Source: Patescibacteria group bacterium
Lineage (GTDB): Bacteria > Patescibacteriota > WWE3 > UBA101185 > UBA10185
Assembly: GCA_049322215.1 (NCBI GenBank)
Contig: JBMORU010000001.1
Coordinates: forward strand, 452,023-516,022
DNA: 64,000 bases
Direction of reading: 5' to 3'
Shown: one piece after another, positions 9,336-59,811 of the stretch
Position numbering within the stretch: the stretch's first letter is position 1
Layout: each line of letters starts with the position of its first letter
The notes under the pieces: generated by a model
The model's input: the letters and a program-made list of their open reading frames with translations, nothing else
The model's database searches: none
Told to the model about the DNA's origin: nothing
Program-made: the position numbers and the translations under genes

Positions 9336-10583
9336 ATGAAATCATTAATCAGTTTTATAAAATCCAAAAAGCGTTACCTACTCATCGCACTTTCGATTGG
9401 AGGCATAATTTTTACAGGTCAACATCTATTAAGCGAAGATACTTCCTCGGACGCTCAGCAAGAAAGTATAACGGTAACTGTGGAAAGAGGAGCTATATCT
9501 CAAACTGTTTCAGCTTCTGGACAAATTGAAACCGCAAATTATTTAGGTGTGACAACCAGTGTAAATGGAATTGTTAAGGATGTATTTGTTAAGGAAGGAG
9601 ATACAGTTACAAAAGGTCAGCCAATTATGGTAATCACTTTAAACGCGGATGGTGAAGAAAACCTAGCTTCTGCGTGGGGTTCCTATCTTTCAGCAAAAAA
9701 TTCCTTAGAAAGTGCAACAGACAGTTTAAGTTCTTTAGAGTCCGCACTCATAACAGCTAAAGAAGCCTTTCAAGATGAAAAGGAGTCCAACAGCTATCAA
9801 ACTCATGACGAAAGAACTTCCTATACACTTGCAGAAAATACTGTAGAAACAGCTCAAGCAAATTATGACAACAAGCTCGATGAAATTAACCAAAAACAAG
9901 TTGCGTTGAATAAAGCGTGGTTAACTTACCAAGCACAATCTCCTACAATTGTTGCACCTAGCAGCGGTATTGTTGCAAATATTGTAGTTGTTGAAGGTAT
10001 GGATATTACTAACTCATTATCAGAAAGGACATCTTCAACTGTTGCTTCCATTAAAAACGAGGGAACACCGATTGCAACACTAAATATTAGCGAAGTGGAC
10101 ATAAATAAAGTAAAGGTTGGTCAGAAAGTTGGAGTTACATTGAACAGTAACAGTGATGAGCTGTTTATGGCTACTGTAGTAGGAATAGATAAGATTGGTA
10201 GTACTTCAAGTGGCGTATCTAATTATCCAGTGATTGTTAAATTTGACGAAGGATCCGACCTAGTACTTCCTAACATGGGCGTAGATGCAGAAATAATTAT
10301 CCAAGAAAAGGTTGATATTTTGTATGTACCAAGCTCTGCAATAAGTTCAGTTAGAGGGAGTACAGTTGTTAACGTAGTTGATGGTGTTACAGTAAGACCT
10401 GTAGAAGTAGAAACAGGCATTTCGACAAATGAATATACAGAAATAACCTCAGGTGTAGAACAAGGTACAGTTATACAGATAGACACGTTACCGACAACAG
10501 GATTTACCTCATCTAGTAATGACCAAGAAGGCTCTGGGGGAAGACCAGGTTTGGTACCATTTAGTGGTGGTGGAAGGAGATAA
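9336..10583 (+). CDS. HlyD/MacA-family periplasmic adaptor (membrane fusion protein)
   Basis: N-terminal TM, biotinyl/lipoyl-like hairpin GIVKDVFVKEGDTVTKGQPIMVI, long coiled-coil, and beta-barrel motifs. Located upstream of ABC ATPase and permease genes. Confidence 0.75.
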   Translation: MKSLISFIKSKKRYLLIALSIGGIIFTGQHLLSEDTSSDAQQESITVTVERGAISQTVSASGQIETANYLGVTTSVNGIVKDVFVKEGDTVTKGQPIMVITLNADGEENLASAWGSYLSAKNSLESATDSLSSLESALITAKEAFQDEKESNSYQTHDERTSYTLAENTVETAQANYDNKLDEINQKQVALNKAWLTYQAQSPTIVAPSSGIVANIVVVEGMDITNSLSERTSSTVASIKNEGTPIATLNISEVDINKVKVGQKVGVTLNSNSDELFMATVVGIDKIGSTSSGVSNYPVIVKFDEGSDLVLPNMGVDAEIIIQEKVDILYVPSSAISSVRGSTVVNVVDGVTVRPVEVETGISTNEYTEITSGVEQGTVIQIDTLPTTGFTSSSNDQEGSGGRPGLVPFSGGGRR

Positions 10584-26743: not shown

Positions 26744-27199
26744 ATGAGTGACATAGTATATCTAACAAAACAAGGATTAGAAGAATTAAAAAAAGAGCTT
26801 AATCAGCTTGTGGATAAAAGACCAGAAGTTGCAAAGCGCATTAAAACAGCTCGCGACATGGGTGATATATCTGAAAATGCTGAATATGTTGCAGCTCGTG
26901 AAGAACAGGCTTTCGTAGAAGGTCGTATTGCTGAACTTGAAGATATTATTAAGAATTCCAAAGTCAGTGAACAAAAGCCCGGTGACGGTATTTACGTGGG
27001 TGCTAAAGTAGTACTTCATATAGAAGGTGACGAAGAAACCTTTCATATAGTGGGTGCTCCTGAAGCAAATCCTTCTGCAAGAAAGATTTCGCACGAATCT
27101 CCTTTAGGTTCTGCTTTGTTAGGTAAAAAAATAGGAGAAAAAGTAGAAGTAGAAGCTCCTGTAGGTAAGCTTGTTTACACAATTTTATCTATAGAGTAA
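26744..27199 (+). CDS. greA: transcription elongation factor GreA
   Basis: LTKQGLEELKKEL...ARDMGDISENAEYVAAREEQAFVEGRIAELE with catalytic D/E in the coiled-coil tip. 151 aa. Confidence 0.9.
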   Translation: MSDIVYLTKQGLEELKKELNQLVDKRPEVAKRIKTARDMGDISENAEYVAAREEQAFVEGRIAELEDIIKNSKVSEQKPGDGIYVGAKVVLHIEGDEETFHIVGAPEANPSARKISHESPLGSALLGKKIGEKVEVEAPVGKLVYTILSIE

Positions 27200-27229
27200 G
27201 ATCGGCTTAGTTAACAACTAAATAATAAA

Positions 27230-27556
27230 GGCTTTGAAAAAGACAAGTAGTTATAAGCAGAAGCTATAAAGGACTAAATGTCCCGAGAGAGCGGCGTTAG
27301 GGTGAAAGTGTCGCATAGAAGAACTAATAATGAAAAGACTTTTAGCTGTTGGAAGAAAAGTGCTTTGCACTTAGTAGACCCAAACGGGGGCGCCCGTAAT
27401 AGCGCTACACTGTGTCGGTGAAAACTGGAGCAGTTAATAAGGTTTGGCTGGCAACAGTCGAATAAATTGAGGTGGTAACACGACCTTTAATAAAGGATCG
27501 TCCTCATTTGGAAGCAATTATTTGTTTTCAGGTGAGGGCGATTTTTTTTGTCTTAA
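27230..27556 (+). ncRNA. candidate T-box riboswitch leader (T-box motif aaattGAGGTGGtAaCaCG at about 27464-27486, then terminator hairpin 27499-27540 with T9)
   Basis: Match to AATTAGGGTGGNACCGCG. An alternative antiterminator can be drawn: UGAGG/CCUCA and ACACGACC/GGAUCGU flanking a UGGUA bulge. The 13-bp terminator (cgtcctcatttgg/tcaggtgagggcg) is followed by attttttttg. AGAGAG and GGTGAAAG elements lie upstream. Confidence 0.45.
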
Positions 27557-27587
27557 CTACAACAACAAAAAAATAAGGAGATGAATC

Positions 27588-28172
27588 ATGAATGACTTAA
27601 AGCAAAGCCTTTTAAATAAAAAGGTAGTGTATTCAGGCAGTGAACTAATTTTTATTCACCGCTGGTTAGTAAGTTTAATTTTATCGGCATATACCAGAAG
27701 GGCTAATAACCGGGGAGAGCAAATATTAGTGCAAAATCCATTCAGAATAAACATGCAGCTTAAAAAAGGCTTAAGCGTGCTCATTTTGGTTTATGGGTTT
27801 CCTATTGGTTATTTAACTACTTACGATTTAGGTGTTGATAAGCGCAATAGACGTTGGTGGGAAGTTGGTACTGGCTATGTTCCAAGACCTTTTCGTGGTT
27901 TTGGTTTGGGTCATGTTTTATATGATGGCGCAGCTCAAAGGCATAAAAAAGATGTACTTGTTGGTACTACAAAAAATCCTGTAGCTTTGCATTTAAGTGT
28001 GACTGCTGGGTTTAAAGTAGAATCTTTTGCCAAAGTCCCTGCAGTTATTCGCAAAAGTTTATGTTATGAGGCGCCTTGTTTTGTAGTTAGTAGCGCTTGC
28101 TCCGGGTGTTGCAAATCTGAGCATAACCTGAATGGTACTTGTTATGCTCGTGTGCGTTGGCCGGTAATGTAA
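27588..28172 (+). CDS. GNAT-like acetyltransferase-fold protein (tentative), first gene after the T-box-like leader
   Basis: RPFRGFGLGHVLYDGAAQ resembles the GNAT motif A (R/QxxGxG/A). RBS AAGGAG. 194 aa with a Cys-rich C-terminus. Confidence 0.4.
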   Translation: MNDLKQSLLNKKVVYSGSELIFIHRWLVSLILSAYTRRANNRGEQILVQNPFRINMQLKKGLSVLILVYGFPIGYLTTYDLGVDKRNRRWWEVGTGYVPRPFRGFGLGHVLYDGAAQRHKKDVLVGTTKNPVALHLSVTAGFKVESFAKVPAVIRKSLCYEAPCFVVSSACSGCCKSEHNLNGTCYARVRWPVM

Positions 28173-28236
28173 AGTTTATATATGCAGAAACGAAATTTAT
28201 TCAAGTAAATTCCGTTTCTGCACCACACAATACAAA

Positions 28237-29313
28237 ATGATTAATGAAAAAAGATTACTTAATACATTCTTAAAAATAGTAAGCATTGATAGCCCATCTG
28301 GGTTTGAGCAGGGTATGGTTGCTTATGTAAGTGATTATTTAAATTCATTAAAATACAAGATTCAAATCGATTCTTATGGAAATTTGATTTGCAAAATTCC
28401 AGGAGAAAAAAATTCTACCCTTTTACTTACAGCTCATTTAGATACCGTTGAGCCCGGATGCGGAATAATTCCACTAGTAGAAGACGGCGTTGTAAAAAGT
28501 GTAGGTAATACTATTTTAGGTGCAGATAACAAAGTTGGTGTGGCTTGCTTACTAGAGGTAGCCCATACAATAAGCGAAAACAATATTGAGCATCCCAGCC
28601 TAGAACTTGTTTTTACCTTGTCTGAAGAGGTTGGAAACTACGGTGCCTTAAACCTAAATTACTCTTTACTAACTGCAAAAGAAGGTTTTTCATTTGATGG
28701 TAGTGACACATTTGGTGCTATCACAGTAGCTTCTCCTTTTTATAACAGGTTTGATATTTCTTTAGAAGGTACTGCAAGTCATGCAGGTAAACCCGAGGGA
28801 GCTAATAATGTAATTATGCCATTATTAAATGTCCTTAATTCTATTAACTTAGGTAGGATAACAGACAACACGCTATGTAACATAGGTGTTGTAGCCTTAG
28901 GTACTACTCGAAACACTGTTCCAGGTAAAGTTGAAGTAAAGGGTGAGGTTAGAAGTTATACAGAAGCTGAGTTAAATAAATATACAGATTTAATAGTTGG
29001 CTATTTTCAAAGTAGTGCTCAAAAGTTTAATGCTACTGTTAGTTGTGATGTGGTTAGAGAAAATGGTGGGTTTAAACTTTCGGAATCAGACAGACTACTA
29101 AGTAAAGGAGTTGCAACTCTTGAAAAACTCAACATAAAACCAATATTACATGAGTCTACAGGATGTTATGATGCGAATATATTTTTCGACCATGGAATTA
29201 AAGTATTAAATTTTAGTAACGGTTCAAAAAATAATCACACAATTGAAGAAGAAGTTTCGGTTGAAAACTTAAGCTTAACTGCTAAACTTGCATTCAATCT
29301 TGTGTTATCTTAG
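28237..29313 (+). CDS. M20-family peptidase, peptidase T (tripeptidase)-like
   Basis: LLTAHLDTVEP (His ligand), GADNKVGVA (Asp ligand, PepT-type), EEVGNYGA, TASHAG. Confidence 0.7.
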   Translation: MINEKRLLNTFLKIVSIDSPSGFEQGMVAYVSDYLNSLKYKIQIDSYGNLICKIPGEKNSTLLLTAHLDTVEPGCGIIPLVEDGVVKSVGNTILGADNKVGVACLLEVAHTISENNIEHPSLELVFTLSEEVGNYGALNLNYSLLTAKEGFSFDGSDTFGAITVASPFYNRFDISLEGTASHAGKPEGANNVIMPLLNVLNSINLGRITDNTLCNIGVVALGTTRNTVPGKVEVKGEVRSYTEAELNKYTDLIVGYFQSSAQKFNATVSCDVVRENGGFKLSESDRLLSKGVATLEKLNIKPILHESTGCYDANIFFDHGIKVLNFSNGSKNNHTIEEEVSVENLSLTAKLAFNLVLS

Positions 29314-29321
29314 AAAAAGTT

Positions 29322-31529
29322 ATGGCTACACTTAAAGAATTACGCGAAGTTCGTTTGCAAAAACTAAAAAAATTAAAAGAACTTGGTATTGATCCTTACC
29401 CAGCACGCGTGGAACGCGATACTGAAATTAATACCATACTTACAAAATTTGATTCTTTAGAAGGACAAACAGTTGCAGTTGCAGGTCGTATAAAAGCCAT
29501 GCGTGAACACGGTAAACTAGCTTTTATTGATCTAAAAGATGCTAGTGGCGTAATTCAACTTTATATTAAAGAAGAAAATTTAATAACGGCCAATTATTCA
29601 TTAAGCCAACTTAAGTTTGAAAATTTAGAATTACTTGATATGGGCGACTTTATAGAAGCAAAAGGTGTTGTTACAAAAACTCAAAGAGGTGAGCTTTCTA
29701 TAGAAGTGACTGCTTTGCGTTTATTAACTAAGGCATTACGCCCTTTGGCAGACAAGTGGGAAGGTTTAAAAGACAAAGAAACCAGGTTAAGACGTCGCTA
29801 CATTGATACAAATGTTAATCAAGAGGTTTTTGATCGCTTTGTTAGGCGCGCAAAATTTTGGGAAGCCCAGAGAGAATTTTTAAATGGTCACGGATTTTTG
29901 GAAATTAATGTTCCTGTTTTAGAACACATTCCCGGTGGAGCTGATGCTACACCTTTTGTTACTCATATGGATGCTATTGATCAGGATTTCTTTTTACGAA
30001 TTTCTCATGAGCTTCAATTAAAAAGACTAATTGGTGGAGGTTATGAAAAAGTTTATGAAATAGGTCCTCGTTTTAGAAATGAGGGATTATCGGACGAACA
30101 TTTACCAGAACACATCGCTATGGAGTTTTATTGGGCATATGCCGATTGGGAACAAGGCATGCAATTTGTTGAAGATATGTTTAAGTACGTAATTGATAAG
30201 GTTTACCATAAAGATGTCTTTGAAATTCGAGGTTTCTCCGTAGACTTTTCAAAAAAGTGGGAAAGAATTGATTTTGCTGAAATAATGAAAAAGCACTATG
30301 GAATAAATGTTTACAGTACAAGTGTTGAAGAAGTGTCAGTAGTATTAAAAAAACACAATATAAAAATAGAATTTGATATGAATGTGGCCCGTGGCATTGA
30401 CTATTTGTGGAAAAATTTACGCAAAGATATTGCAGGTCCTGCATTTTTAATTAATCATCCAAAATTTTTATCTCCTTTGTCTAAATCTAAAGTAGAAAAT
30501 CCAAAAATCACCGAAAGATGTCAGCCTATTATTGCAGGATCTGAGTTGGGAAATGGTTGGTCTGAGTTGAATGACCCATTAGATCAGCTAGATAGATTTA
30601 CAGCACAACAAAAGCTACGCGAAATGGGGGATGCTGAGGCGCAATGGCTAGATATCGACTATATTGAAATGCTTGAATATGGCATGCCTCCTACTTTTGG
30701 GTGGGGACATAGCGAACGCGTATTTTGGTTTTTAGAAGATGTAACCGCACGTGAGGGTGTTCCTTTTCCACAATTAAAATTTGAGCTAGATGAAGTTACG
30801 CGTGAAATATATGGTGATGCTCTGCTTGCTGCTTCTCAATACAAAGAAAGCGAGGAAAAAGAGTTTTTAGGTTCAACAGTTGAAAAAAAAGTGACAGCTC
30901 CTAAAGATTTAGAACCAGTTGCCGAAGGAAGTTTACCCCTAACGGTAGACTCCGCTAAAGATTTATTAACCACAAATATGGAAAATGTTAATTTGCAAAG
31001 ACACTGTTTAGCTGTAGGGTATACCTTGCAAGCCCTTAGACGTTACTATGTAGAAAATGGCAGAGAGCATGAAGTAGGGAACTTAACCGAAGACGCTTGG
31101 CAAATAGTTGGTGTTTTACACGATGCAGACTGGGAAAAAACTTCTGAAGCACCTGAGTTACACACATTAATGCTTTTAAACTGGTTAAAAGCTTATGAAG
31201 TTTACGAGGAAATTTTAAATGTATTTAGGTCTCACAATAACAAAGTAACTCAGCTTCGAGAACCTGAAACATTGTTGGAGTGGTCACTAGAATGCTGTGA
31301 TGAGTTAACAGGCTTTATTGCTGCCGTTACATTAGTAAGACCATCAAGGCAAATATCAGACGTTAAAGTAAGTAGTGTTAAAAAGAAGTTTAAAACAAAA
31401 GAGTTTGCACGGGCTGTTCATAGAGAGCAAATTTCACAGTGCGAAGAAAAACTTGGAATTTCTTTAGACACATTTATTGAAATTACTTTAAATGCTATGA
31501 AAGAGCACGCTGAGGAGTTAGGTTTATGA
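29322..31529 (+). CDS. lysS: lysyl-tRNA synthetase (class II) with about 230-aa C-terminal HD-domain-like extension
   Basis: N-terminal MATLKELREVRLQKLKKLKELGIDPYP, OB anticodon-binding domain, class II motifs (FLEINVPVLE, PRFRNEG, GWGHSERVF). The tail from about residue 500 carries H...HDADWEK (HD motif). 735 aa versus about 500 typical. Confidence 0.8.
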   Translation: MATLKELREVRLQKLKKLKELGIDPYPARVERDTEINTILTKFDSLEGQTVAVAGRIKAMREHGKLAFIDLKDASGVIQLYIKEENLITANYSLSQLKFENLELLDMGDFIEAKGVVTKTQRGELSIEVTALRLLTKALRPLADKWEGLKDKETRLRRRYIDTNVNQEVFDRFVRRAKFWEAQREFLNGHGFLEINVPVLEHIPGGADATPFVTHMDAIDQDFFLRISHELQLKRLIGGGYEKVYEIGPRFRNEGLSDEHLPEHIAMEFYWAYADWEQGMQFVEDMFKYVIDKVYHKDVFEIRGFSVDFSKKWERIDFAEIMKKHYGINVYSTSVEEVSVVLKKHNIKIEFDMNVARGIDYLWKNLRKDIAGPAFLINHPKFLSPLSKSKVENPKITERCQPIIAGSELGNGWSELNDPLDQLDRFTAQQKLREMGDAEAQWLDIDYIEMLEYGMPPTFGWGHSERVFWFLEDVTAREGVPFPQLKFELDEVTREIYGDALLAASQYKESEEKEFLGSTVEKKVTAPKDLEPVAEGSLPLTVDSAKDLLTTNMENVNLQRHCLAVGYTLQALRRYYVENGREHEVGNLTEDAWQIVGVLHDADWEKTSEAPELHTLMLLNWLKAYEVYEEILNVFRSHNNKVTQLREPETLLEWSLECCDELTGFIAAVTLVRPSRQISDVKVSSVKKKFKTKEFARAVHREQISQCEEKLGISLDTFIEITLNAMKEHAEELGL

Positions 31530-31572
31530 AGTCCGCGCACTTTCGTATGGGGTTTTAAGATTAATTGCTATA

Positions 31573-31625
31573 AAAAAAGTAGGTAAAGAAATTACATAAG
31601 AGCGTAACTTCTTTACCTAAAAAAT
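31573..31625. terminator. bidirectional terminator (aggtaaagaa-18 nt-ttctttacct flanked by A7/A6)
   Basis: Perfect 10-bp stem between the convergent lysS and 31630-31869 ORFs. Confidence 0.7.
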
Positions 31626-31629
31626 TTAG

Positions 31630-31869
31630 TTAACTAACCAGTGCTGCCAAGCGGTGTTTTACCGTAGAGGCGCGTGATTCTAAATGCCAGTCGCTGCGTA
31701 GACCAATGACTGTGGTGCATTGCGCACGCGTTTGATTGCATCCTTTTTCTGGGCTTACTCGCACCCAACGGCCATTTACAAAAAACTTGCCAGTTTCAGG
31801 GCACTTAATACCGTATTTGCCTCCTCTTTTTACCAAATGAACAATCGTCCTTCCGTTGTTGTTTTCCAC
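31630..31869 (-). CDS. small hypothetical protein (79 aa), Cys-containing, high GC for this genome
   Basis: Reverse-strand RBS aaAAGGAGataaaATG. Protein MENNNGRTIVHLVKRGGKYGIKCPETGKFFVNGRWV... Confidence 0.45.
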   Translation of the reverse strand: MENNNGRTIVHLVKRGGKYGIKCPETGKFFVNGRWVRVSPEKGCNQTRAQCTTVIGLRSDWHLESRASTVKHRLAALVS

Positions 31870-31939
31870 ATTTATCTCCTTTTCTATGGGTTTTAGATTT
31901 GTGCAGTATACATCATGATAATATTGACAATCAAGGGTA

Positions 31940-32112
31940 GTAACGCTATTTTAGTAGAAAGACAAAAAGCGCTGATAGAGGAAGTTTCCGCCTCTTGAGC
32001 TGCTAGGAGGAAATGCCTAGCCGGGAATGCCCGTGATAGCTGTAAATTAAGTTAAAAGTACCAGGTGGCACCGTCCACCATTAGGACCCTGGCAAATGGC
32101 CAGGTTTTTTTG
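31940..32112 (+). ncRNA. T-box riboswitch leader upstream of serS (T-box aaaagtaccaGGTGGcACCGtcc 32054-32076; terminator cctggc-aaatg-gccagg + T7 at 32088-32111)
   Basis: Good match to the AGGGTGGNACCG core, GC stem followed by ttttttt, and the first downstream gene is an aminoacyl-tRNA synthetase. Putative -35 TTGACA at 31923. Confidence 0.55.
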
Positions 32113-32144
32113 TATCTGGTAAGTGTAAATTTAGGAGTTTAAAA

Positions 32145-33458
32145 ATGTTAGATATTAAATATGTACGTGAAAACCCAGATGAGTTAAAAAAAGTTATTGA
32201 AGACCGCCAAATGGTTGGTAAGGCCAACGTTGATACTGTGCTAGAACTGGATGATTCATATCGGGCTTTGTTGTTTAAAGTTGAGACACACCGAAGCTTG
32301 CGCAATCAGTTATCTAAAGATATATCAAAAGTAAATACTGCTGAGCGTAATAAGTTAATAAAAGAAGCAGCTAAGGTAAAAGAAGAGCTTTTAAAAATGG
32401 AAGAAGAATTAAAAGAGCTTCAAGCTAATTTAGAACTAGAGTTAAAAAAACTTCCAAATACTGTTGCTGAAGATGTTCCCTTTGGCGTTGATGAGAACGA
32501 AAACAAAGTAATTAGAACTTGGGGAAAGTTGTCCGAATTTGACTTTGAACCTAAAGACCATGTGGATTTAGGTGAAGCTTTAGACTTAATTGACATAGAA
32601 TCATCAGCGCGTATTTCAGGAAGTCGTTTTAACTACCTAATGAATGAGGCTGTAATGCTTCAGTTTGGGATTATTCAAATGACTTTTGAAATTTTAACAA
32701 ACGAAGACATTATTGGTGAGCTCGCAGAAAAAGTAGGTAACCCGTTTACTAAGCCTTTTATACCTGTGTTGCCTCCTGTGTTCATAAAGTCCGATATTGC
32801 TCAAAAAATGGATAGGTTTGACCCAATAGAAGATCGTTACTTTTTTGAAAAGGACGACGCTTTATTGGTTGGTAGTGCAGAGCATACTTTAGGCCCATTA
32901 TACTTAGACGCGTTGCTTGAAGAGGATCAATTACCTATTCGTTTAGTGGGTTATTCTACCGCATTTCGTCGTGAAGCTGGATCTTACGGGAAAGATACAC
33001 GTGGAATTCTCAGAAGACACCAATTTGACAAAATTGAAATGGAAACGTTTACTATGCCTGAGCATGGTTTAGCAGAACAAAACTTAATAGTTGCAATTCA
33101 AGAATATTTGGTTCAGCAACTAAAAATTCCATATCAAGTAATGGCCATTTGTACAGGTGATATGGGTAAACCAGACTTTAGGCAAATAGACATTGAGTGT
33201 TGGATGCCCGGAGAAAATAAATATAGAGAGACGCATACCTCAGACTATATGACTGACTTTCAATCACGCAGACTAAATACCAGATATAAAGCTAAAAATG
33301 GAGAAAACTACTTTGTGCACATGAACGATGCAACAGCTTTTGCTATAGGTAGAATATTAATAGCTATATTAGAAAACAATCAACAAAAGGATGGAAGTGT
33401 GGTAATTCCTGAAGTTTTACACAAGTATGTTGGTAAAGAGGTTATTGGTAATAAATAA
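32145..33458 (+). CDS. serS: seryl-tRNA synthetase
   Basis: N-terminal MLDIKYVRENPDEL coiled-coil arm. Class II motifs FRREAGSYGKDTRGILRRHQFDKIE, ETHTSD. 437 aa. Confidence 0.9.
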   Translation: MLDIKYVRENPDELKKVIEDRQMVGKANVDTVLELDDSYRALLFKVETHRSLRNQLSKDISKVNTAERNKLIKEAAKVKEELLKMEEELKELQANLELELKKLPNTVAEDVPFGVDENENKVIRTWGKLSEFDFEPKDHVDLGEALDLIDIESSARISGSRFNYLMNEAVMLQFGIIQMTFEILTNEDIIGELAEKVGNPFTKPFIPVLPPVFIKSDIAQKMDRFDPIEDRYFFEKDDALLVGSAEHTLGPLYLDALLEEDQLPIRLVGYSTAFRREAGSYGKDTRGILRRHQFDKIEMETFTMPEHGLAEQNLIVAIQEYLVQQLKIPYQVMAICTGDMGKPDFRQIDIECWMPGENKYRETHTSDYMTDFQSRRLNTRYKAKNGENYFVHMNDATAFAIGRILIAILENNQQKDGSVVIPEVLHKYVGKEVIGNK

Positions 33459-45646: not shown

Positions 45647-48600
45647 ATGCGTCACAATTTATCCAAAAGGAAAAATGTCCTGCCACTACCTAATTTATCA
45701 ATGGTTCAACAAAATTCCTATGATTGGTTGCAATCTTACGGAATTACCGAAGTTTTAGAAGAGCTGGGTCCTGTCGAAGATTATACAGGGCGTGGTTGGC
45801 TATTAACTTTTTCTAAACCAACTGTAGAAAAAGAAAACATTTCAATAGATGAAGCGTTAGAATCAGGAAGAACCTATGACGCACCCTGGTATTTAACGGC
45901 TACTTTAGAAGACCCTATTGCAAAAAAGAATAAAGTTCAACAAATATATATGGGTGATATTCCCTTAATGACATCTAAGGGTACCTTTATTATTAATGGA
46001 GTAGAAAGAGTCGTTGTAAATCAACTCACCCGTTCAGAGGGTGTTTTATTTACTGATAGCATTTCTCCCACTACTGGAAAGACTCTAGGTGGTGCAAAAG
46101 TACTACCAAAAAACGGCGTTTGGCTAGAAATTGAAACATCTAGAAACGGTGTAATTAGCGTAAAAATTGATAGAAGAAGAAAACTAACTATAACTTCTTT
46201 ATTAAGAGTTTTCGGTTTAGAAGATGATGACGACATAAGAGATGCTTTTGCTGCAGTAGATGCTGATCCTGAAATTAGCTATATAGAGTCTACTTTAGCC
46301 AAAGATCCTGCATCCTCTGTTGAAGAAGCTGCTATCGAAATTTATAGAAAAATGCGTCCCGGCGAACCTTTAGTTTTAGAAAATGCACAGGCTCTAGTTG
46401 AATCTATGTTTTTTAATCCTAGACGCTATAGTTTAGGAAGTGTTGGTAGATTTAAACTAAACCAAAAGTTAGGTTTGAATTTTCCTAATGAACCTGAACA
46501 TAGACTTTTACACTTAGAGGATTTAATCAAAATAATTGAAAGAATAATATTAATAAACCGCGGTGAAGCAGAAGCTGACGATGTGGATAACTTAGGTAAT
46601 CGTCGCGTAAGAAGCGTAGGTGAATTGTTACAAAACCAAATTCGTATTGGTTTCTTACAAATGGAGAAGAATATTAAAGAAAGAATGAGTTTGCAGCCAA
46701 GAGACGAATTACCCGAACCTTCTGTTTTAATTTCACCTAGATCAGTTACTGCAAAAATTCACAGTTTCTTTGCTTCTGGTCAGTTATCTCAATTCCAAGA
46801 CCAACAAAACCCACTAACATCTTTAGATCATTTGAGACGTTTATCGGTTATGGGTCCTGGAGGTTTAACAAAAGAACGTGCAAGTATGGCAGTAAGAGAC
46901 GTGCACTTTTCTCATTACGGAAGAATTTGTCCTGTACGCACACCAGAGGGTCCAAACATTGGTCTTATCAATTATTTAGCTATGTACGCTCGTGTAAACG
47001 ACTACGGCTTTTTAGAAACCCCATATTTCAAGTTAGAAAAAATGGAAGATGGTAGAGTAAAAGTTACAGACGAAATAGTATACTTGGCAGCTTACGATGA
47101 AGAAGGTATTTACATAACTGATGGATCAGTAAGTGTTGATGAAAAAGGTTTCATAACACAAGATCAAGTTCCTCTTAGAAAAGGTGGGGAATTTACTTTG
47201 GGCGCTGCAACACAAGCTGAATATATTGAAATAGTTCCTCAGCAAATAGTAGGTATTTCTGCAGGACTTATACCCTTTTTGCAAAACGATGACGTAACTC
47301 GTGCTCTTGTAGCTACACAACAAATGTCCCAGGCCGTGCCTTTAATTCATGCAGAAGCACCTATTGTAGGTACCGGTATAGAAGATGTTATAGCACAAAA
47401 TGCAGGTATTGTTATTAGAGCTGAAGAGCCCGGTGAAATTGTTTATGCTGATGCCAATAGGGTTGAAGTTAAATATAAGGGTAGCAATTCGGCAGTAACT
47501 TACAAAACTCAAAAGTACATAAAATCAAACCATGACACCTGTTTTAATCAAATAGTTAAGGTTAAAACCGGTGATAAAGTAAAGAAAAACGATATCTTAA
47601 TTGAGGGTCCTGCTTCTGTAAATGGTGAATTAGCAAACGGCACAAACGTTAAAGTAGCATACATGATTTGGGAAGGTTATGAATACGAAGACGGAATAGT
47701 CATTTCAGATAGATTAGTGCAGGATGATGTTTTAACATCTGTACATATTTCTGATTACTCCGTTTCTGTTTTAGAAACAAAATTAGGCCCTGAAGAAGTT
47801 ACCCGCGATATCCCAAATGTTTCTGAGGAAGCATTAAGAAGCTTAGATGCACAGGGTATTGTTGCTATTGGATCAAAAGTTAAAGCAGGTGATATTTTAG
47901 TAGGTAAAGTTGCTCCAAAAGGTGAGGTGGAACTTTCTGCAGAAGAAAGACTATTAAGAGCTATTTTTGGTGAAAAAGCTAAAGATGTAAGAGACAACTC
48001 ATTGGTAATGCCTCATGGTGAGCACGGTACCGTTATTGGAATTAAAACAGTCACTAAAGATGACAATAACAATTTATCTGCAGGTGTATTAAAAGAAATT
48101 ACTGTTTACACTGCACAATTAAAGAAAATCCAAGTTGGTGACAAACTAGCGGGTCGTCACGGTAACAAAGGTGTTATTTCAGCAGTAGTTCCCGTAGTAG
48201 ATATGCCAAGAATGGAAGACGGAACTCCTATTGATATTGTTTTTTCATCTGAAGCAGTACTAAAAAGAATGAATGTAGGCCAAATACTAGAGGCTCCTAT
48301 TGGACTTGCGGGTAGTAGGCTTGGCAAAAAGTACTCAGTTCCCGTATTTGAGCGTTTCTCAGAAAAAGACTATGAAGATGAATTGGTTGAAGCCGGTTTA
48401 CCTAAAACAGGAAAAATGCGTTTAGTAGATGGTCGTACTGGCGATTACTTTGATGGTGAAATAGTTGTAGGTGAAACGTATTTATTAAAGTTATATCACT
48501 TAGCTGAAGATAAAATGCATGCTCGTTCCACAGGACCTTACTCTTTAATCACACAGCAACCTTTAGGAGGTAAAGCTCAATTTGGTGGTCAAAGATTTGG

Positions 48601-48949
48601 TGAAATGGAAGTTTGGGCACTTGAAGCATACGGTGCAGCACATATATTAAGAGAAATGTTAACTATAAAATCTGATGATTTGGTGGGTAGAACTCAAGCT
48701 TATAGGGCTATATTGCAAGGCAATCCTATACAAGAATCTACAGTACCAGAATCATTCAAACTGCTGGTTCGTGAACTCAATGGTTTGTGTTTAGGAATCG
48801 AACCACTTTCATTTACTACCGAAGAAGAATCAGATGAGGAAGAATTGGTAAGTTTAGGGAGCGATGTTACTACCACTGTAATTACTGAATCTGACGAGGA
48901 AGCACTAAGTGCGGTAGACAGTTTAGAAAGTTCCGAGGAGGAAGAATGA
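45647..48949 (+). CDS. rpoB: DNA-directed RNA polymerase beta subunit
   Basis: 1100 aa. Conserved blocks GRFRQNLLG-equivalent, RLSALGPGGL-like (RLSVMGPGGL), GRHGNKGV, NVGQILE, acidic C-terminus. Confidence 0.97.
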   Translation: MRHNLSKRKNVLPLPNLSMVQQNSYDWLQSYGITEVLEELGPVEDYTGRGWLLTFSKPTVEKENISIDEALESGRTYDAPWYLTATLEDPIAKKNKVQQIYMGDIPLMTSKGTFIINGVERVVVNQLTRSEGVLFTDSISPTTGKTLGGAKVLPKNGVWLEIETSRNGVISVKIDRRRKLTITSLLRVFGLEDDDDIRDAFAAVDADPEISYIESTLAKDPASSVEEAAIEIYRKMRPGEPLVLENAQALVESMFFNPRRYSLGSVGRFKLNQKLGLNFPNEPEHRLLHLEDLIKIIERIILINRGEAEADDVDNLGNRRVRSVGELLQNQIRIGFLQMEKNIKERMSLQPRDELPEPSVLISPRSVTAKIHSFFASGQLSQFQDQQNPLTSLDHLRRLSVMGPGGLTKERASMAVRDVHFSHYGRICPVRTPEGPNIGLINYLAMYARVNDYGFLETPYFKLEKMEDGRVKVTDEIVYLAAYDEEGIYITDGSVSVDEKGFITQDQVPLRKGGEFTLGAATQAEYIEIVPQQIVGISAGLIPFLQNDDVTRALVATQQMSQAVPLIHAEAPIVGTGIEDVIAQNAGIVIRAEEPGEIVYADANRVEVKYKGSNSAVTYKTQKYIKSNHDTCFNQIVKVKTGDKVKKNDILIEGPASVNGELANGTNVKVAYMIWEGYEYEDGIVISDRLVQDDVLTSVHISDYSVSVLETKLGPEEVTRDIPNVSEEALRSLDAQGIVAIGSKVKAGDILVGKVAPKGEVELSAEERLLRAIFGEKAKDVRDNSLVMPHGEHGTVIGIKTVTKDDNNNLSAGVLKEITVYTAQLKKIQVGDKLAGRHGNKGVISAVVPVVDMPRMEDGTPIDIVFSSEAVLKRMNVGQILEAPIGLAGSRLGKKYSVPVFERFSEKDYEDELVEAGLPKTGKMRLVDGRTGDYFDGEIVVGETYLLKLYHLAEDKMHARSTGPYSLITQQPLGGKAQFGGQRFGEMEVWALEAYGAAHILREMLTIKSDDLVGRTQAYRAILQGNPIQESTVPESFKLLVRELNGLCLGIEPLSFTTEEESDEEELVSLGSDVTTTVITESDEEALSAVDSLESSEEEE

Positions 48950-51900
48950 AAACATTAAACGAATTAAAAGACTTCGAATCCCTAAGAATATACCTTGCTT
49001 CGTCTGAAGATATTCTAAATTGGTCGTTTGGTGAAGTAACAAAGCCTGAAACTATTAACTATCGAACTTTTAGACCTGAACGCGAAGGTTTATTTGATGA
49101 AAGAATATTTGGACCTGTTAAAGATTACGAATGTTATTGCGGAAAATATAAGAGAATAAGATATAAGGGCGTAATTTGTGACAAATGTGGTGTGGAAGTT
49201 ACTCACTCAAGAGCACGTCGTGAAAGAATGGGTCATATTAAGTTAGCATCTCCCGTTGTTCATGTGTGGTTTTTTAAGGGAATTCCTTCTAAATTAGCCT
49301 CATTACTTGAATTATCTCCTAGAAATTTAGAAGCAGTAATATACTTCTCTTCTTTCATTGTTACTGAAATAGAAGGTGCTAAAAAAGCACAGGTTATAAC
49401 TCAAATAGAGCTAGATTTAGAAGAAGAAAAGAAAATTTTATCAAACAGATTAGATGAAAAAATTAAAGAAGTTGAAAATGAAAGAAAGAAACTAGAAAAA
49501 GACAAAAAAGATGAATTTTCAGCTCAGGAGGCCGACTTAAAGCTTAAGCAAAAAATTAAGAATTTAAGAGACGCAAATACTGCAGAAGTTGATGAAATTG
49601 AAAAAGAATACAAGTTAATGCAAAAGAAAATTGAAAGTATAGAACTTCATACTGTTTTATCTGACAATGAGTACTTGAAATTAGCTGATTATGTTGATGA
49701 ATTTTGTAAAGTAGAAATTGGTGCCGAGGCGATTCATTCAATTTTAGAAAAATTAGACTTAAATGCTTTATCTGCACAATTACGTGAGGATTTAGAAAAA
49801 GCAAAAGGTCAAAAAGCTATTAAAATATCTAAAAGATTAAAGGTTGTAGAAGGTTTTAGGCGCGCAGATATATCACCAACTAGAACAGTTTTAGATATAG
49901 TTCCAGTAATTCCACCTGACTTAAGACCTATGGTTCAGTTAGAAGGTGGTAGATTTGCCACTTCGGACCTAAACGATTTATACAGAAGAGTTATAAACAG
50001 AAACAATCGTTTAAAGAGATTGTTAGATTTAGGAGCTCCCGAAATTATTATTAGAAACGAAAAAAGAATGCTTCAAGAATCTGTAGATGCTTTATTTGAT
50101 GCTTCAAAACAGCGTCAGTCAGTAAGAAACAGCAGAAGCAGAAAACAGCTAAGGTCTTTGGCAGATATGTTAAAAGGCAAGCAAGGTCGTTTCCGCCAAA
50201 ACTTACTTGGTAAACGTGTTGATTACTCTGGTCGTTCAGTTATTGTAAACGGGCCCGACTTAAAATTAAATGAATGTGGTCTTCCAAAAGAGATGGCTCT
50301 TGAATTATTTAAACCATTTGTTTTGCGTGAGTTACTAGGAAGAGGTTTAGCTCCCAATGTTAAGAGTGCTAAGTACGTTTTAGAGCAAAGGGGTCCTGAA
50401 GTTTGGGATATATTAGAAGAATTGGTAAAAGATCATCCGGTGCTATTAAACAGAGCCCCAACATTATGGCGCTTAGGTATACAAGCTTTTTATCCAAAAC
50501 TAGTTGATGGAAATTCAGTTCGCTTACACTTAGCTGTATGTCCTGGTTATAACGCTGACTTTGATGGTGACCAAATGGCTGTACATTTACCTTTATCTCA
50601 GAAGGCCATAGAGGAAGCAAAAACGCTATTAATTTCAACAAATAACTTATTGAAACCATCTGACGGTACGCCAATATCTGTTCCAACTAAAATAATGTTA
50701 TTTGGTATTTACTATATGACTGCGATAAATCCCGATTTAGATTTATGGCCTGTTTCTTTCTCAAGTGCTGAAGAGGCGTTGTATGTGTATGAGGTGGTTA
50801 AAGATTTGAACCTAAAACAAAAAATTAAAGTTTTGGTGGACGGTAACCTTGTTGAAACATCTCCTGGGCGTTTACTGTTTAATAAGGTAATACCTAATGT
50901 ATTTGGCTTTATAAACGAAGAAATGGATAAGAAAAAAGTTAGCGCATTGTTAGCTAAAGCTTTTGACGAACAGCCACATGAAGTAGTTGTTAAACTTATT
51001 GATGATCTTAAAGATGTGGGGTTAAAATACGGTACCATTTCAGGCCATTCAGTCGCATTATCGGATGTTGAAATACCAAACTCCCGAGAAAAACACATAG
51101 AAGCTGGCCGTAAAGAGGTCGCTGAAATAAACAAAAACTTTAGACGTGGTCTTATAACCAAAAACGAATCTCAAAGACTTTCAGAAGATGTATGGAACAA
51201 AATAACAGCAAACATCGATGAAGATGTATGGGGCAACTTACCCGAAGATAATCCTGTTAAAATATTGGTTAAATCAGGAGCTACTCGTGCTTCTAGAGAC
51301 CAGGTTAAGCAAATTGGTGGTATGCGAGGTTTGATTGCTGATCCTACTGGTAAAATTGTAGAATTGCCTATTTTGGGTAACTACAAACTTGGTTTGTCAG
51401 GTATAGAGTACTTTGCAAGTTCAAGAGGTGCTAGAAAAGGATTAGCCGACCGTGCTTTGAAAACCGCCGACTCTGGTTACTTAACTCGTCGTTTGGTTGA
51501 TGTTGCACAAGATGTTTTAGTTCGCGAAGATGATTGTGGTACTACTGACGGCAGGGAAGTTATAGTTGGTGAAAAAACTGTATTAAATGACTTCGCTGAT
51601 CGTGTCGCCGGACGTTATTTAGCAGATACTGTTAAAGACGGTAAATCTATAGTCGCAAAAGCAGGCACACTATTAACTGAAGATGTAGTTGCTGCTATTG
51701 AAGCTGCCGGAATTGAAACTATAAAACTAAGATCCCCATTAAACTGTGAAACTAACAGAGGTATTTGCGCTAAATGTTATGGAATAGACTTAATGACTCG
51801 TGATCTAATAAAAGCAGGCTCCGCAGTAGGTGTTTCTGCTGCTCAAGCAATTGGAGAACCAGGAACTCAGTTAACAATGAGAACATTCCACACAGGAGGT

Positions 51901-52638
51901 ATTGCAGGACGTGATATTACACAAGGTTTGCCAAGAATAGAAGAAATAGTAGAGGCGCGTGCTCCTAAAAACTTATCCATAATGAGTGAAATAACGGGTA
52001 CTGTAAAGATTACCGAAAATGGAGACGACAGAAAACTATCAATAATTGCTACTGATGATACTGAAGATTTACAAGTTGTTGAATATATGGTTGATCCTTT
52101 AGCCGAGATACTAGTTGAAAACAATCAGTTAGTTGCTCAAGGTGAAAAATTAACTGCAGGGCACTTAGACTTAACCGAGCTTTTACGCGCGGTGGGTGTT
52201 AATGCAACTAAGCGCTACATAGTAGACGAAATTCAAAGAGTATATTCTTCTCAAGGTGTTGCTATTAATGAAAAGCACATTGAAGTTATTGTTAAGCAAA
52301 TGTTTAACAGTGTAAAAGTTGAGGATATAGGTGATACTGACTTACTACCCGATGAAGTTGTTACAAAAGCAACGTTTGAAGAAGCTAATGAAAGAGCTAT
52401 TGCTGAAGGCGGAAATCCTGCTACAGCAAAAGTAACATTACTTGGTATTACTAAAGCATCTTTGGGTACAGATAGCTTTTTATCGGCAGCATCCTTTATT
52501 CAAACAAGCAATGTGTTGACTGACGCAGCTGCGTCTGGTAAAGTCGATTCGCTTTTGGGACTAAAAGAAAACGTTATCATAGGTAGATTAATCCCAACAG
52601 GTGAAAGAGCATTAATTGAAGAATCTGAAGAAGATTAG
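48946..52638 (+). CDS. rpoC: DNA-directed RNA polymerase beta' subunit
   Basis: 1230 aa. Zn-finger [35 protein letters not shown] catalytic motif, trigger loop region. ATGA overlap with the rpoB stop. Confidence 0.97.
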
Positions 52639-52649
52639 AAAGAAATAAT

Positions 52650-53057
52650 ATGCCAACTGTTAATCAATTACTAAGAAAAGGTAGAAAAACAAAAATAAAA
52701 AAGGCAAATACTCCTGCGCTTTCTGAGATATTTTCTTCTCTAGCACGTAGAAGTAAGCCTGGTAACTCTCCATTTAAGAAGGGTGTTTGTTTGCAAGTTA
52801 AAACAATGACTCCTTCTAAACCAAATTCAGCCTTGAGAAAAGTTGCTAGAGTTAGGTTATCGAATGGTAAAGAAGTTACTGCTTACATACCTGGAGAAGG
52901 TCATAACCTACAAGAGCACTCAGTTGTGTTAATTAAGGGTGGAAAAGTTAAAGACTTGCCAGGAATTAAATACACTATTGTTAGAGGAACGTATGATTTG
53001 CAGGGTGTAGATAGTAGAAAATCTTCAAGATCAATTTATGGAGTTAAAAAGAGTTAA
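52650..53057 (+). CDS. rpsL: 30S ribosomal protein S12
   Basis: [13 protein letters not shown]...[13 protein letters not shown]...VRGG. Confidence 0.97.
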
Positions 53058-53068
53058 CTTAGGAAATT

Positions 53069-53533
53069 ATGAGATCAAAACGTATTAAAAAGAAACAAAT
53101 ATCCCCTGATGCAATTTATAAGTCTCGGGTTGTAACAAGATTAATAAACTATGTAATGCTTCATGGTAAAAAAGCTGTAGCTGAAGATATTGTTTATTCT
53201 GCTATTGGCCGTATATCAGAAGATCGTAAAGATGCAGCCGCTTTTTTTGAAAAAGCAGTAAAAGAACTTATGCCTAAGCAAGAAGTAAGGTCTAGAAGAG
53301 TTGGGGGTGCCACTTATCAAGTGCCCGTTCCAGTAAAACATGACCGTGCTGAAGCTTTAGCCCTAAGATGGTTAGTTGATGTATCTAGAGGAAAAAAAGG
53401 AAAACCAATGGCGGATGCCCTATTTGAAGAGTTAAATCACATTAATGAAGGCATTGGTGATGCCTTAAAGAAGCGTGATGACACTCATAAAATGGCTGAA
53501 GCTAATCGTGCGTTTGCACACTTTAGGTTTTAA
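53069..53533 (+). CDS. rpsG: 30S ribosomal protein S7
   Basis: Characteristic S7 sequence, 154 aa. Confidence 0.95.
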   Translation: MRSKRIKKKQISPDAIYKSRVVTRLINYVMLHGKKAVAEDIVYSAIGRISEDRKDAAAFFEKAVKELMPKQEVRSRRVGGATYQVPVPVKHDRAEALALRWLVDVSRGKKGKPMADALFEELNHINEGIGDALKKRDDTHKMAEANRAFAHFRF

Positions 53534-53661
53534 AGTGGGTAAGCAACAGTTTTTTGCTGTTTATTACGTCAGTAAACTTTTACCTCAAACCATTTACTAA
53601 AGTGCACGCCGACTTAAGTTAAATAATTAGAAAGTTTATAAATAGAAAGTTAGAAATTAAT

Positions 53662-55758
53662 ATGGCTCAAAATAAAGCATCTACAAAAGAATATCCGTTA
53701 GAGAGAATTCGTAATATTGGTATTATTGCTCATATTGATGCGGGTAAAACTACAACTACTGAAAGAGTGCTTTTTTATACAGGCCGTTCCCACAAAATAG
53801 GTGAAGTTCATGAAGGCGAAGCTCAAATGGACTGGATGGCACAGGAGCGTGAAAGAGGTATTACAATTACTTCTGCTGCTACTACATGTTTTTGGCTCGA
53901 TCACAGAATTAATATTATAGACACACCGGGTCACGTTGACTTTACTGCAGAAGTAGAACGTTCTCTAAGAGTTTTAGATGGTGGTGTAGTTGTTTTAGAT
54001 GGTTCTCAAGGCGTTGAGCCTCAAACTGAAACTGTTTGGAGACAAGCAGAAAAATACAAAGTACCCTTACTATGTTTTGTAAATAAACTTGACAAAGTAG
54101 GTGGTGATTTTTACATGTCTTTAAAATCTATTCACAATCGTTTATCTAGTAAGGCGGTTGCAGTACAACTACCTATAGGTATTGAAGGTGATTTTAATTC
54201 AGTAATTGACCTTGTTGAAAGAAAAGCTTACACGTTTACAGGTAACTTAGGTTCTGAAATTAAAGAAGTACAAATTCCTGAAGATATGAAAGATAAAGTT
54301 GAGGAATACAGAGCAATTTTAGTAGAAAAAGTTGCAGAGTCAGATGACACTTTAATTGAAAGATTTTTAAATGGTGAAGAGCTCAGCATAGATGAAATAA
54401 AAAATGGCATAAGAAAAATGACAATGTCTGTTCAAATGTATCCTGTATTTGTGGGTTCAGCCTTGGCTAATGTTGGTGTGCAAAAACTTTTAGATGGTGT
54501 TATTGCATATTTACCATCTCCTAAAGATGTTCCTGCTGTAATTGGGCACAAACCTAATTCTGAGGAAGAAGTTCAGCTTCATGCTGATGAAAACGGTCCT
54601 TTTGCTGCGTTAGCATTTAAAATTCAAACCGACCCATATGTAGGTAGGTTAACTTACTTCAGAGTGTATTCAGGAAGCTTAGATGCTGGTTCTTACGTTA
54701 TGAACACAACTAAAGGACAAAAAGAGCGTTTGGGTCGCATTTTATTAATGCATGCAAATCACAGAGAAGAAATAAAACATATTGGAGCTGGTGAAATTGC
54801 AGCCGCTGTTGGTTTGAATGCTACAACAGGAGATACTTTAGCAAGTGATGATCATCCGCTAGTTTTAGAAGCAATAAGTTTTGCTGAGCCTGTTATTGGG
54901 TTAGTGGTAGAACCTAAAACAAAAGTTGATAGAGATAGATTAGGTGAGTCTTTAAGAAAACTTGTAGAAGAGGATCCTACACTAAAAATTAAAACCAATG
55001 CTGAAACTGCAGAAACTGTGCTTTATGGTATGGGTGAACTTCATTTGGAAATTATTGTAGACCGTTTAAAAAGAGAGTTTAATGTAGAGGTAAATACCGG
55101 AACACCACAAGTGGCTTATAGAGAGTCTGTTAAAAAGACTGTAGAAGTAGAAAATAAGTATATTAGACAATCTGGTGGTAAAGGTCAGTATGGACATGTT
55201 TATATAACCATGGAACCATTAGAACCAGGTAAAGGTATTGAATTTGAAAACAAAATTACCGGAGGTTCAATTCCTCGTGAATACATACCTGCAGTAGAAA
55301 AAGGTATTAGAGAAGCGTCTGAATCTGGTGTTGTTGCCGGGTACCCAGTTGTAGATGTTAAAGTGACTTTAACTGATGGTTCATATCACGATGTGGACTC
55401 TTCAGAAATGGCATTTAAAATTGCAGCTTCTGGTGCCTTTAAAGAGGCACAGAAAAAAGCAGGATCTTATTTACTAGAACCAATTATGCATGTAGAAGTT
55501 TCTACACCTGAGGAGTTTATGGGTGACGTTATGGGTAACTTATCTAGTAAGCGCGGAAAAATTGAAGGTAACGAATCTAGAGGACAAGCTGTTGTTATAT
55601 CAGCAAAAGTGCCTTTAGCAGAGATGTTTGGTTATGCCACAGAATTAAGAGGTATGACACAAGGTAGAGCAGGTTTCACTATGGAACCAAGTCACTACGA
55701 AGAGGTTCCTGCAAATATTGCAGCAGAAATCTCTAAAAAAACAGGGAACAGCTATTGA
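53662..55758 (+). CDS. fusA: elongation factor G
   Basis: [33 protein letters not shown]. 698 aa. Confidence 0.97.
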
Positions 55759-57119: not shown

Positions 57120-57133
57120 GTAGAATCTAAGAT

Positions 57134-57160: not shown

Positions 57161-57164
57161 AAAG

Positions 57165-58064: not shown

Positions 58065-58065
58065 T

Positions 58066-59809: not shown

Positions 59810-59811
59810 AA

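Follow-up and report, generated by a model that had tools for sequence, protein, structure and literature searches.

In the 64,000-nucleotide (nt) stretch of bacterial DNA analysed here (the window), a leader RNA that we identify as a lysine-specific T-box riboswitch lies between greA and a cluster of three genes that ends in lysS, the gene of lysyl-tRNA synthetase (LysRS). The stop codon of greA (26744-27199, upstream of the leader) ends at 27199 and the next open reading frame (ORF) starts at 27588, leaving a 388-nt gap, in line with the untranslated region of ~390 nt that had been remarked in an earlier reading of this DNA (the original prediction). The three genes that follow on the plus strand encode a GNAT-fold protein of 194 amino acids (aa; 27588-28172), with a strong Shine-Dalgarno sequence AAGGAG at 27575-27580, an M20 metallohydrolase of the PepT-like clade of 358 aa (28237-29313), and a class II LysRS (residues 1 to ~490) fused to an HD domain (residues ~530-735; 29322-31529). 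The relatives of this LysRS all come from Patescibacteria, the best of them, with ~70% identity, being metagenome-assembled genomes of the candidate division WWE3; the protein comparison thus places the host as a Patescibacterium near WWE3, and the original prediction was right to put it outside the Firmicutes.

The Rfam covariance model of the T-box (RF00230), a scan with which had been proposed as the first check, matched positions 27225-27508 on the plus strand over its full length (model positions 1-219) with 71.4 bits, which is significant though under the curated gathering cut-off of 93 bits. The E-value was 1.4e-15 on a 501-nt stretch and 1.8e-13 when the 64-kb window was searched against all 4227 Rfam families, and these values exclude a chance match to the T-box model. 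The leader was found with E-value thresholds; the default gathering-threshold Rfam scan of the window returned tRNA only and missed the T-box, because the match scores under the gathering cut-off. The T-box consensus sequence that had been picked out by eye is present as AAAUUGAGGUGGUAACACGA at 27464-27483 (+).

Stem I (27230-27347, +) was delimited by the covariance-model alignment, and its helices are backed by compensatory changes. Its specifier loop has the S-turn layout, with AGUA (27246-27249) on the 5' side and GAA-AAG-A (27332-27338) on the 3' side. The specifier codon in this alignment is the Lys codon AAG, which adjoins the closing helix and is followed by the conserved purine A27338 (27335-27338, +); the AGUA/GAA layout, with a codon and then a purine, also occurs in five other leaders described below. 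The original prediction had already suggested an AAG-A specifier in Stem I, and a Lys AAG specifier followed by an A does exist there, but at 27335-27337; the triplet that it had named ('atagAAGAact', with AAGA at 27319-27322) is the wrong one and falls in an internal loop in the upper part of Stem I that is not conserved, other leaders having GUGC, AUAC or UGAU there. The AG bulge AGAGAG (27286-27291) and the distal loop GGGUGAAA (27300-27307, +) are each invariant in all leaders. In characterised T-boxes, these two elements form the platform that touches the tRNA elbow.

The Stem II region (27349-27403, +) comprises a Stem IIA/B hairpin CGGGGGCGCCCG (27385-27396) and an F-box-like sequence CCCGUAAUAGC (27393-27403), both of which are conserved among the leaders; the pairing of Stem II is poorly supported, with mismatch flags in the covariance-model alignment. 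Stem III (27442-27463, +) is a hairpin of 9 pairs with the loop GCAA, in which both partners have changed in 7 of the 9 pairs and the paired cells amount to 97.8%. It is followed by the T-box sequence and antiterminator (27464-27506, +; -11.8 kcal/mol), whose helix A1 pairs UGAGG (27468-27472) with CCUCA (27502-27506) and whose helix A2 pairs ACGA with UCGU, extended by CCUUU/AAAGG. In the first A2 pair, the window has A-U where the other leaders have G-C, which is a compensatory change. Between the two helices lies a 7-nt bulge, UGGUAAC, of which UGGU (27473-27476) is placed to pair with A73-C-C-A of the tRNA. The alternative antiterminator with a UGGUA bulge that had been drawn by hand is therefore borne out in its helices and bulge. 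An intrinsic terminator follows at 27495-27549 (+), with a stem of 23 pairs (27495-27517 with 27522-27544) and a T8 run (27542-27549); it had been described as a 13-bp terminator with T9, so that its presence stands while its dimensions are corrected to 20-23 pairs (27495-27544) and T8. The terminator has a folding energy of -31.8 kcal/mol (z -10.7), shows compensatory changes and is conserved in all leaders. The 3' arms of the antiterminator share the stretch 27495-27506 with the 5' arm of the terminator, and the two folds are mutually exclusive. As the terminator is much stronger than the antiterminator, termination should be the default state, as in characterised T-boxes.

Homologous leaders were found by fetching the contigs of GNAT relatives and checking the sequence upstream of each GNAT gene. 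This yielded five independent homologous leaders (L001 being the same as L002 and L085), each upstream of an orthologous GNAT gene, and the four of them in which Stem I is complete have AAA or AAG at the specifier position. The leader of L003, a 95% identical strain, scores 72.3 bits with the specifier AAG, that of L001 85.6 bits with AAA, that of L004 93.8 bits with AAA, and that of L086 79.2 bits with AAG, L004 being the sole one at the Rfam cut-off; the complete leader of L095, read directly and aligned, has the specifier AAG. In L094, the contig starts inside the T-box sequence, leaving the 3' part of the leader alone, with the terminator present. The RF00230 E-values across the leaders range from 1e-13 to 1e-21, and on these scores we regard their homology to the T-box family as beyond doubt. 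In five aligned leaders, pairing holds in 92.1% of cells for 44 pairs of Stem I, Stem III and the antiterminator, a value that drops to 35-49% when the partners are slid by one to three columns; 19 pairs show changes on both sides, and none of 500 shuffles attained the observed values. Such covariation, for which an alignment of related leaders had been advised, supports the fold. Furthermore, promoter-like sites (consensus matches only) lie 23-24 nt 5' of the leader in the window, L004 and L001, and 5 nt 5' of it in L086; that of the window, TTTACA-17-TAAGAT (27174-27202, +; 9 of 12 consensus matches), overlaps the greA stop codon and ends 23 nt before the T-box match. No T-box was detected by Rfam at E<=1e-3 in L088, L090, L091 and L092, nor in L065, L069, L007 and L011.

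The specifier column of the six leaders (window, L003, L001, L004, L086 and L095) reads AAG, AAG, AAA, AAA, AAG and AAG, and the lysine specificity of the original prediction, which had been based on the wrong triplet, thus holds through a column that contains AAR only. A T-box for another amino acid might still be considered, since AGA (Arg, +1 frame) and GAA (Glu) overlap the specifier in the window, and the Bacillus cereus lysK T-box responds to tRNA-Asn too (PMC2916919), which would allow an Asn cross-reaction. The overlapping frames are unconserved, however, the +1 frame being AGA or AAA and the -3 frame GAA or CAA, so AAR is the sole frame conserved across the six leaders, and UGGU fits A73 of tRNA-Lys; we consider another specificity extremely improbable. 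The L001 contig itself carries a tRNA-Lys(CUU) with A73 and an encoded CCA, which matches the bulge UGGU. This gene lies at L001 11999-12073 (-), ~2.3 kb downstream of the L001 cassette; the AAA specifier of the L001 leader would pair fully with a UUU anticodon, not with the CUU of this nearby tRNA-Lys.

As for the genes behind the leader, the original description of the first two as GNAT-like and M20 PepT-like agrees with the structural and family matches. The GNAT-fold protein of the window scores 13.1 bits against PF00583, under the cut-off of 20.7, while its orthologues pass it (P0002, 21.2 bits; P0003, 28.0; P0023, 28.8; P0088, 41.8), and its AlphaFold2 model (mean predicted local distance difference test score, pLDDT, 75.6) matches GNAT structures with probability 1.0 and template modelling (TM) scores of 0.5-0.6. 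Among solved structures, N-alpha-acetyltransferases and aminoglycoside acetyltransferases have the nearest folds, and motif A is conserved as R103-G-x-G-x-G108. The family is small: an exhaustive HMMER search gave ~80 cluster representatives out of 1.84 billion searched, a word-index protein search gave 3 close homologues and then 16, a metagenome scan with 8 GNAT sequences gave 3 loci, one of them a duplicate, and a scan with the GNAT alignment found no relatives in 185,579 GTDB species-representative genomes. Four C-terminal cysteines, C159, C164, C175 and C185 (residues 159-185; window 28062-28145), are invariant or nearly so in 28 members and may form a metal-binding site, which would be unusual for a GNAT protein. 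They fall in the low-confidence C-terminal tail of the model.

The M20 protein belongs to Pfam M20 and displays the metal-ligand motifs H-x-D, D, EE and H in its sequence. Its best family by a wide margin is the PepT-like TIGR01883, against which it scores 218.7 bits, under the curated cut-off of 274.25, followed by a DapE/ArgE subfamily at 107.9 bits; the orthologues in L088 and L001 reach 247 and 240 bits against TIGR01883, respectively. It also matches PDB 3gb0 with an E-value of 3e-57. The PepT-like M20 proteins (TIGR01883; PDB 3gb0 and 3rza) are hence its closest sequence matches, with the differences that the window protein scores below the family cut-off and that the family is one without an experimentally defined substrate. 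In the 64-nt spacer between the GNAT and M20 genes, a 9-bp hairpin GCAGAAACG...CGTTTCTGC with a 20-nt loop occurs at 28184-28230, with no U-run after it.

The genomic context indicates how these genes came to stand before lysS. According to tblastn searches with the window proteins, greA is directly upstream of lysS in ~65 of 80 related loci of the Candidate Phyla Radiation (CPR), the two genes being separated as a rule by 15-60 nt; lysS is often followed by serS and a spermidine-synthase-like gene, and in none of those ~65 loci does a GNAT or M20 gene intervene between greA and lysS. In the lineage of the window alone, ~2.1 kb consisting of a promoter, the T-box, the four-cysteine GNAT gene and the PepT-like M20 gene lie at this junction. 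The GNAT and M20 genes are themselves adjacent in the window, L001, L087, L088, L092/L093, L094, L096 and L097, and the T-box accompanies the pair in at least six lineages. Outside the window lineage, lysS never follows the M20 gene wherever the sequence after it was recovered, the cassette being followed by a uvrD-like gene in L001, by recA in L088 and by a small ORF in L094. Since the cassette occurs elsewhere without lysS and greA abuts lysS in the relatives, the GNAT-M20 pair is the conserved cargo and the linkage to lysS is secondary. By these comparisons, promoter, Lys T-box, GNAT and M20 genes are a self-contained unit, and lysS lies behind the T-box solely through a lineage-specific insertion of this cassette at the greA-lysS junction. 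The original prediction, which took the operon ending in lysS as the T-box unit, is to be revised in this respect. No compositional break was seen at the inserted cassette in the window.

The last gene, on the other hand, had been correctly recognised as LysRS-HD. Its LysRS part exceeds the family cut-offs (NF001756, 498.7 bits vs 468; TIGR00499, 448.8 vs 427.6), and its C-terminal ~235 aa (window 30820-31529) have the HD fold. The HD domain has no Pfam match itself; it shares 45-65% identity with a very large family of stand-alone PF01966 proteins of ~188 aa (at least 7995 matches), in which H35, H74-D75, H88 and H112 are invariant, and its AlphaFold2 model (pLDDT 95.2) matches HD-fold proteins alone, weakly, the top Foldseek match being the HD domain of the bacterial glycyl-tRNA synthetase beta subunit. 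In the nearest WWE3 relatives, the HD protein is a separate ORF directly after a lysS of ~500 codons, whereas the two are fused in the window and in many Microgenomates (the loci compared for the fusion include L012-L019, L025 and L028). LysRS makes diadenosine tetraphosphate (Ap4A). An Ap4A-hydrolysing role of the HD domain as a partner of LysRS is a lead at most: a YqeK-type Ap4A hydrolase was tried as its identity and rejected, given weak hits alone (E 0.002) and a Foldseek rank of 32, and is kept as such a lead.

The gap between the M20 gene and lysS is 8 nt and has no terminator, so that read-through transcripts should include lysS; they probably continue into lysS-HD, which would give LysRS expression a T-box-dependent component. 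Four overlapping promoter-like sites at 29120-29288, within the final 200 nt of the M20 gene and directly 5' of lysS, could be an internal lysS promoter or an artefact of AT-richness. It is conceivable, although on balance we do not favour it, that the T-box controls the GNAT-M20 pair alone and that lysS-HD is expressed mainly from such a promoter of its own in the 3' end of the M20 gene. The cassette is complete without lysS in other lineages, and housekeeping LysRS is reported to be free of T-box control (PMC2916919), both of which would fit; yet the region is AT-rich and the 14 promoter-like sites in 28000-32200 are not above chance (12.5 in shuffled sequence), the 8-nt gap lacks a terminator, and lysS of the relatives, located 15-60 nt after greA, has almost no upstream spacer of its own.

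Taken together, we read the leader as a canonical class I T-box responding to tRNA-Lys, the GNAT-M20 pair as its cargo, inserted before lysS, and lysine recovery as the predicted purpose of the unit, a reading to which we assign a probability of roughly 0.8. The probable transcription start is near 27210, and in the default state the 23-pair terminator would form and RNA polymerase would stop before the GNAT gene. When uncharged tRNA-Lys is present, its anticodon would base-pair with the specifier AAG of Stem I, its elbow would stack on the platform of AG bulge and distal loop, and its free A73-CCA end would pair with UGGU in the T-box bulge; this contact would stabilise the weaker antiterminator and lead to read-through. 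A shortage of Lys-tRNA would thereby switch on the GNAT and M20 genes, most likely raising the free-lysine pool in an amino-acid auxotroph, with the M20 enzyme freeing lysine from small peptides or from N-acyl-lysine. Patescibacteria are described as being without amino-acid biosynthesis and as relying on proteases, peptides and uptake (PMC11665869), and it is because of this dependence on peptides and uptake that lysine recovery by the M20 enzyme is favoured here.

A number of observations weigh against this reading. The window leader, at 71.4 bits, falls outside strict RF00230 membership; its K-turn at the base of Stem I has UGA on the 5' strand, but the 3' strand is degenerate, with UAG instead of GA and one nt short, in the window and L003, while L001, L004, L086 and L095 have a canonical G-A K-turn; and a 13-nt hairpin insertion in Stem I (GGAC-UAAAU-GUCC, 27271-27283, +), present in the alignments of the window and L003 alone, departs from the consensus, as does the bulge, which reads UGGUAAC rather than UGGNACC. 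In isolation, Stem I of the window is not the minimum-free-energy fold (z -0.19). No tRNA-Lys gene lies in the 64-kb window, the more distant GNAT-M20 loci L088 and L092 are without a T-box by Rfam, and the M20 gene has no clear Shine-Dalgarno sequence, lysS likewise having no obvious one, unlike the GNAT gene. The promoter-like sites before lysS described above belong here too. Finally, induction of a GNAT protein under lysine starvation is hard to explain, as acetylation of lysine would be counter-productive. Several of these deviations, i.e. the sub-threshold Rfam score, the degenerate K-turn, the Stem I insertion and the departures in the bulge and A2, would also suit a decaying, non-functional relic of a T-box. 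Nevertheless, AGUA/GAA, the specifier and its purine, AGAGA, GGUGAAA, UGGU and the competing terminator and antiterminator are all intact, and the few differences between the leaders of the window and L003 leave the structure unaffected or improve pairing (A-A to U-A in Stem I, G-U to A-U in the terminator, C-G to U-G in the A2 extension). Moreover, with so strong a terminator a dead sensor would silence the genes downstream, and we hold a relic to be very improbable.

Two other accounts of the gene pair may be considered, and a distant member of the GNAT family (P0028) in L091 (520-3569) bears on both. It is divergently oriented from an AstE/AspA-type deacylase and a LAT-family L-lysine 6-transaminase (437.5 bits, under the cut-off of 520.8), an arrangement that suggests an N-acyl-lysine pathway. 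One account is an acyl-protected branch of lysine biosynthesis in which GNAT would carry out the acylation and M20 the deacylation, as functional analogues of DapD/DapE, DapH/DapL or ArgA/ArgE. An acyltransferase and an M20 deacylase are indeed the pair that defines such branches, the M20 protein also has its 107.9-bit match to the DapE/ArgE subfamily, and L091 joins the GNAT family with a class III aminotransferase and a deacylase. However, the M20 protein is closest to the PepT-like clade and stays under every DapE/ArgE equivalog cut-off, dap and lys genes are absent among the 20 other window proteins scanned, the window being a small part of the genome, and Patescibacteria are reported to lack amino-acid biosynthesis (PMC11665869), so that lysine synthesis is an improbable role. 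The other account sees the pair as a protection against lysine antimetabolites or inhibitors of LysRS, with the GNAT protein acetylating and the M20 protein hydrolysing the analogue or a lysyl-adenylate mimic, in a manner resembling MccE and MccF, which act on processed microcin C. Both enzymes would then have a role and the induction of an acetyltransferase at low Lys-tRNA would be explained; inhibition of LysRS raises uncharged tRNA-Lys and would turn the T-box on; N-alpha-acetyltransferases and aminoglycoside acetyltransferases are the nearest solved folds of the GNAT protein; and a position of the cassette directly before lysS would fit. Specific similarity to MccE or RimL is absent, on the other hand, as are toxin or biosynthetic genes nearby, the L091 context indicates ordinary lysine metabolism, and the account is wholly inferential; we judge it unlikely.

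Two other loci may tie the same gene pair to lysine by different means. In L097 (1931-2085), the GNAT gene is preceded, in place of a T-box, by a promoter and an 18-codon ORF MIKISLKQSKKMKYLLAG with 5 Lys codons, which overlaps alternative hairpins in which GCGGGAUGAU/GUUGAUCCCGC competes with a CCCGC-GCGGG+U6 terminator; the mRNA of this leader ORF may be leaderless. L088 (864-1000) has a weaker analogue, a short Lys-codon ORF MKMNFILQTEKKSLLRREGVLRY with interchangeable CCUUCUC/GAGAAGG arms before a terminator. These short ORFs may be ribosome-mediated lysine attenuators of the same genes. The lysine ties of L091 and L097 are leads, short of proof. A wider proposal, which we put forward tentatively and consider doubtful, is that these loci represent a new lysine-starvation module restricted to Patescibacteria, with two sensors of tRNA-Lys charging (the Lys T-box in at least six lineages and the leader-peptide attenuators) and, in the window, with the housekeeping LysRS-HD placed behind the T-box terminator.

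A second T-box-like leader occurs in the window at 31963-32110 (+), 5' of serS (32145-33458), with an RF00230 match of 37.4 bits (E 1.1e-6 on 701 nt). Stem I of this leader is greatly reduced in length, its terminal loop GAAGUUUCCGC may hold a UCC Ser specifier, its bulge UGGC fits G73 of tRNA-Ser, and it has a terminator CCTGGCAAATGGCCAGG+T7 at 32088-32110 and a promoter-like site TTGACA-17-TATTTT at 31924-31952. Similar short serS leaders are found in L065 (~9920-10110), L067 (~10010-10210), L069 (~9930-10120) and L072 (~9490-9680); these four CPR serS leaders have the loop UAGCA (AGC Ser) and GGUGGCACCACG cores followed by terminators. The short T-box-like elements seen by eye in L065 and L069 are probably lost by the Rfam speed filters. 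Ultrashort Stem I structures are known from the translational ileS T-boxes of actinobacteria, and the short CPR serS leaders appear to be transcriptional. The lysS-serS spacer of the window is unusually long (615 nt) and contains a 79-aa minus-strand ORF (31630-31869) and a 17-pair terminator-like hairpin (31619-31580), whereas in several WWE3 relatives serS comes directly after lysS/HD. Elsewhere in the window, an rpoB/rpoC and a ribosomal-protein/fusA/tuf operon are apparent at 45647-63891 from ORF sizes and order, and these apparent operons suggest that the T-box locus would be in a core chromosomal region; Pfam confirmed secA, thyA, uppP (BacA), rsmB, a MacB-type ABC permease and a 1241-aa PKD/esterase protein.

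In Firmicutes, lysine is usually sensed by the L-box (lysine) riboswitch, which responds to free lysine directly and switches genes off. It shares with the present leader a cis-acting position, lysine supply genes and a terminator, but belongs to another RNA family, for which the Rfam scans of the window gave no match. As to the cargo, we take the SnaA/SndA and SnaB/SndB proteins of Bacillus subtilis, GNAT and M20 deacetylase pairs of sulfur-amino-acid salvage, to be comparable with the GNAT-M20 pair by description only: in both cases an N-acetyltransferase and an M20 amidohydrolase would recover a proteinogenic amino acid from a modified precursor, and the Sna/Snd operons presumably differ in encoding an intervening transforming enzyme and in being without Lys T-box control.

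Among T-boxes, Lys is one of the least common specificities (PMC7778990), and Firmicutes dominate the T-box database TBDB, with Actinobacteria, Chloroflexi and Deinococcus-Thermus coming next; our literature searches linking the T-box to Patescibacteria or the Candidate Phyla Radiation found nothing. T-box control of LysRS has been described in four Firmicute species only, always beside a second, unregulated LysRS (PMC2916919). The leaders of lysK in B. cereus and Bacillus thuringiensis and of lysS2 in Clostridium beijerinckii, which are experimentally Lys-responsive, resemble that of the window in being class I transcriptional T-boxes with a Lys specifier, a terminator/antiterminator switch and LysRS downstream (PMC2916919). 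They differ in that they belong to Firmicutes and directly control an accessory second LysRS (PMC2916919), whereas the cargo in the window is GNAT-M20, LysRS comes third, through an insertion, in a housekeeping greA-lysS-serS block, and the host is a Patescibacterium. The Lys T-box of the MFS permease gene BH0807 of Bacillus halodurans (PMC2494555) shares with the window a Lys specifier and a cargo that is not an aminoacyl-tRNA synthetase and is presumed to raise the lysine supply; it differs in its Firmicute host and in having a transporter as cargo, in contrast to the enzyme pair of the window. The RNA is thus an ordinary T-box, and what is new is the phylum of its host, its cargo and the position of lysS behind it.

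For a gene pair that was unannotated, the leader supplies a specific functional label, 'induced by lysine-tRNA shortage'. If lysS is co-transcribed with the cassette, the locus is a possible counter-example to the rule that housekeeping LysRS is not under T-box control. The leader could find use in Patescibacteria genetics as a native regulatory element with a defined ligand, for which a need has been stated (PMC11665869), and it extends the range of tRNA-sensing riboswitches to ultrasmall, auxotrophic episymbionts.

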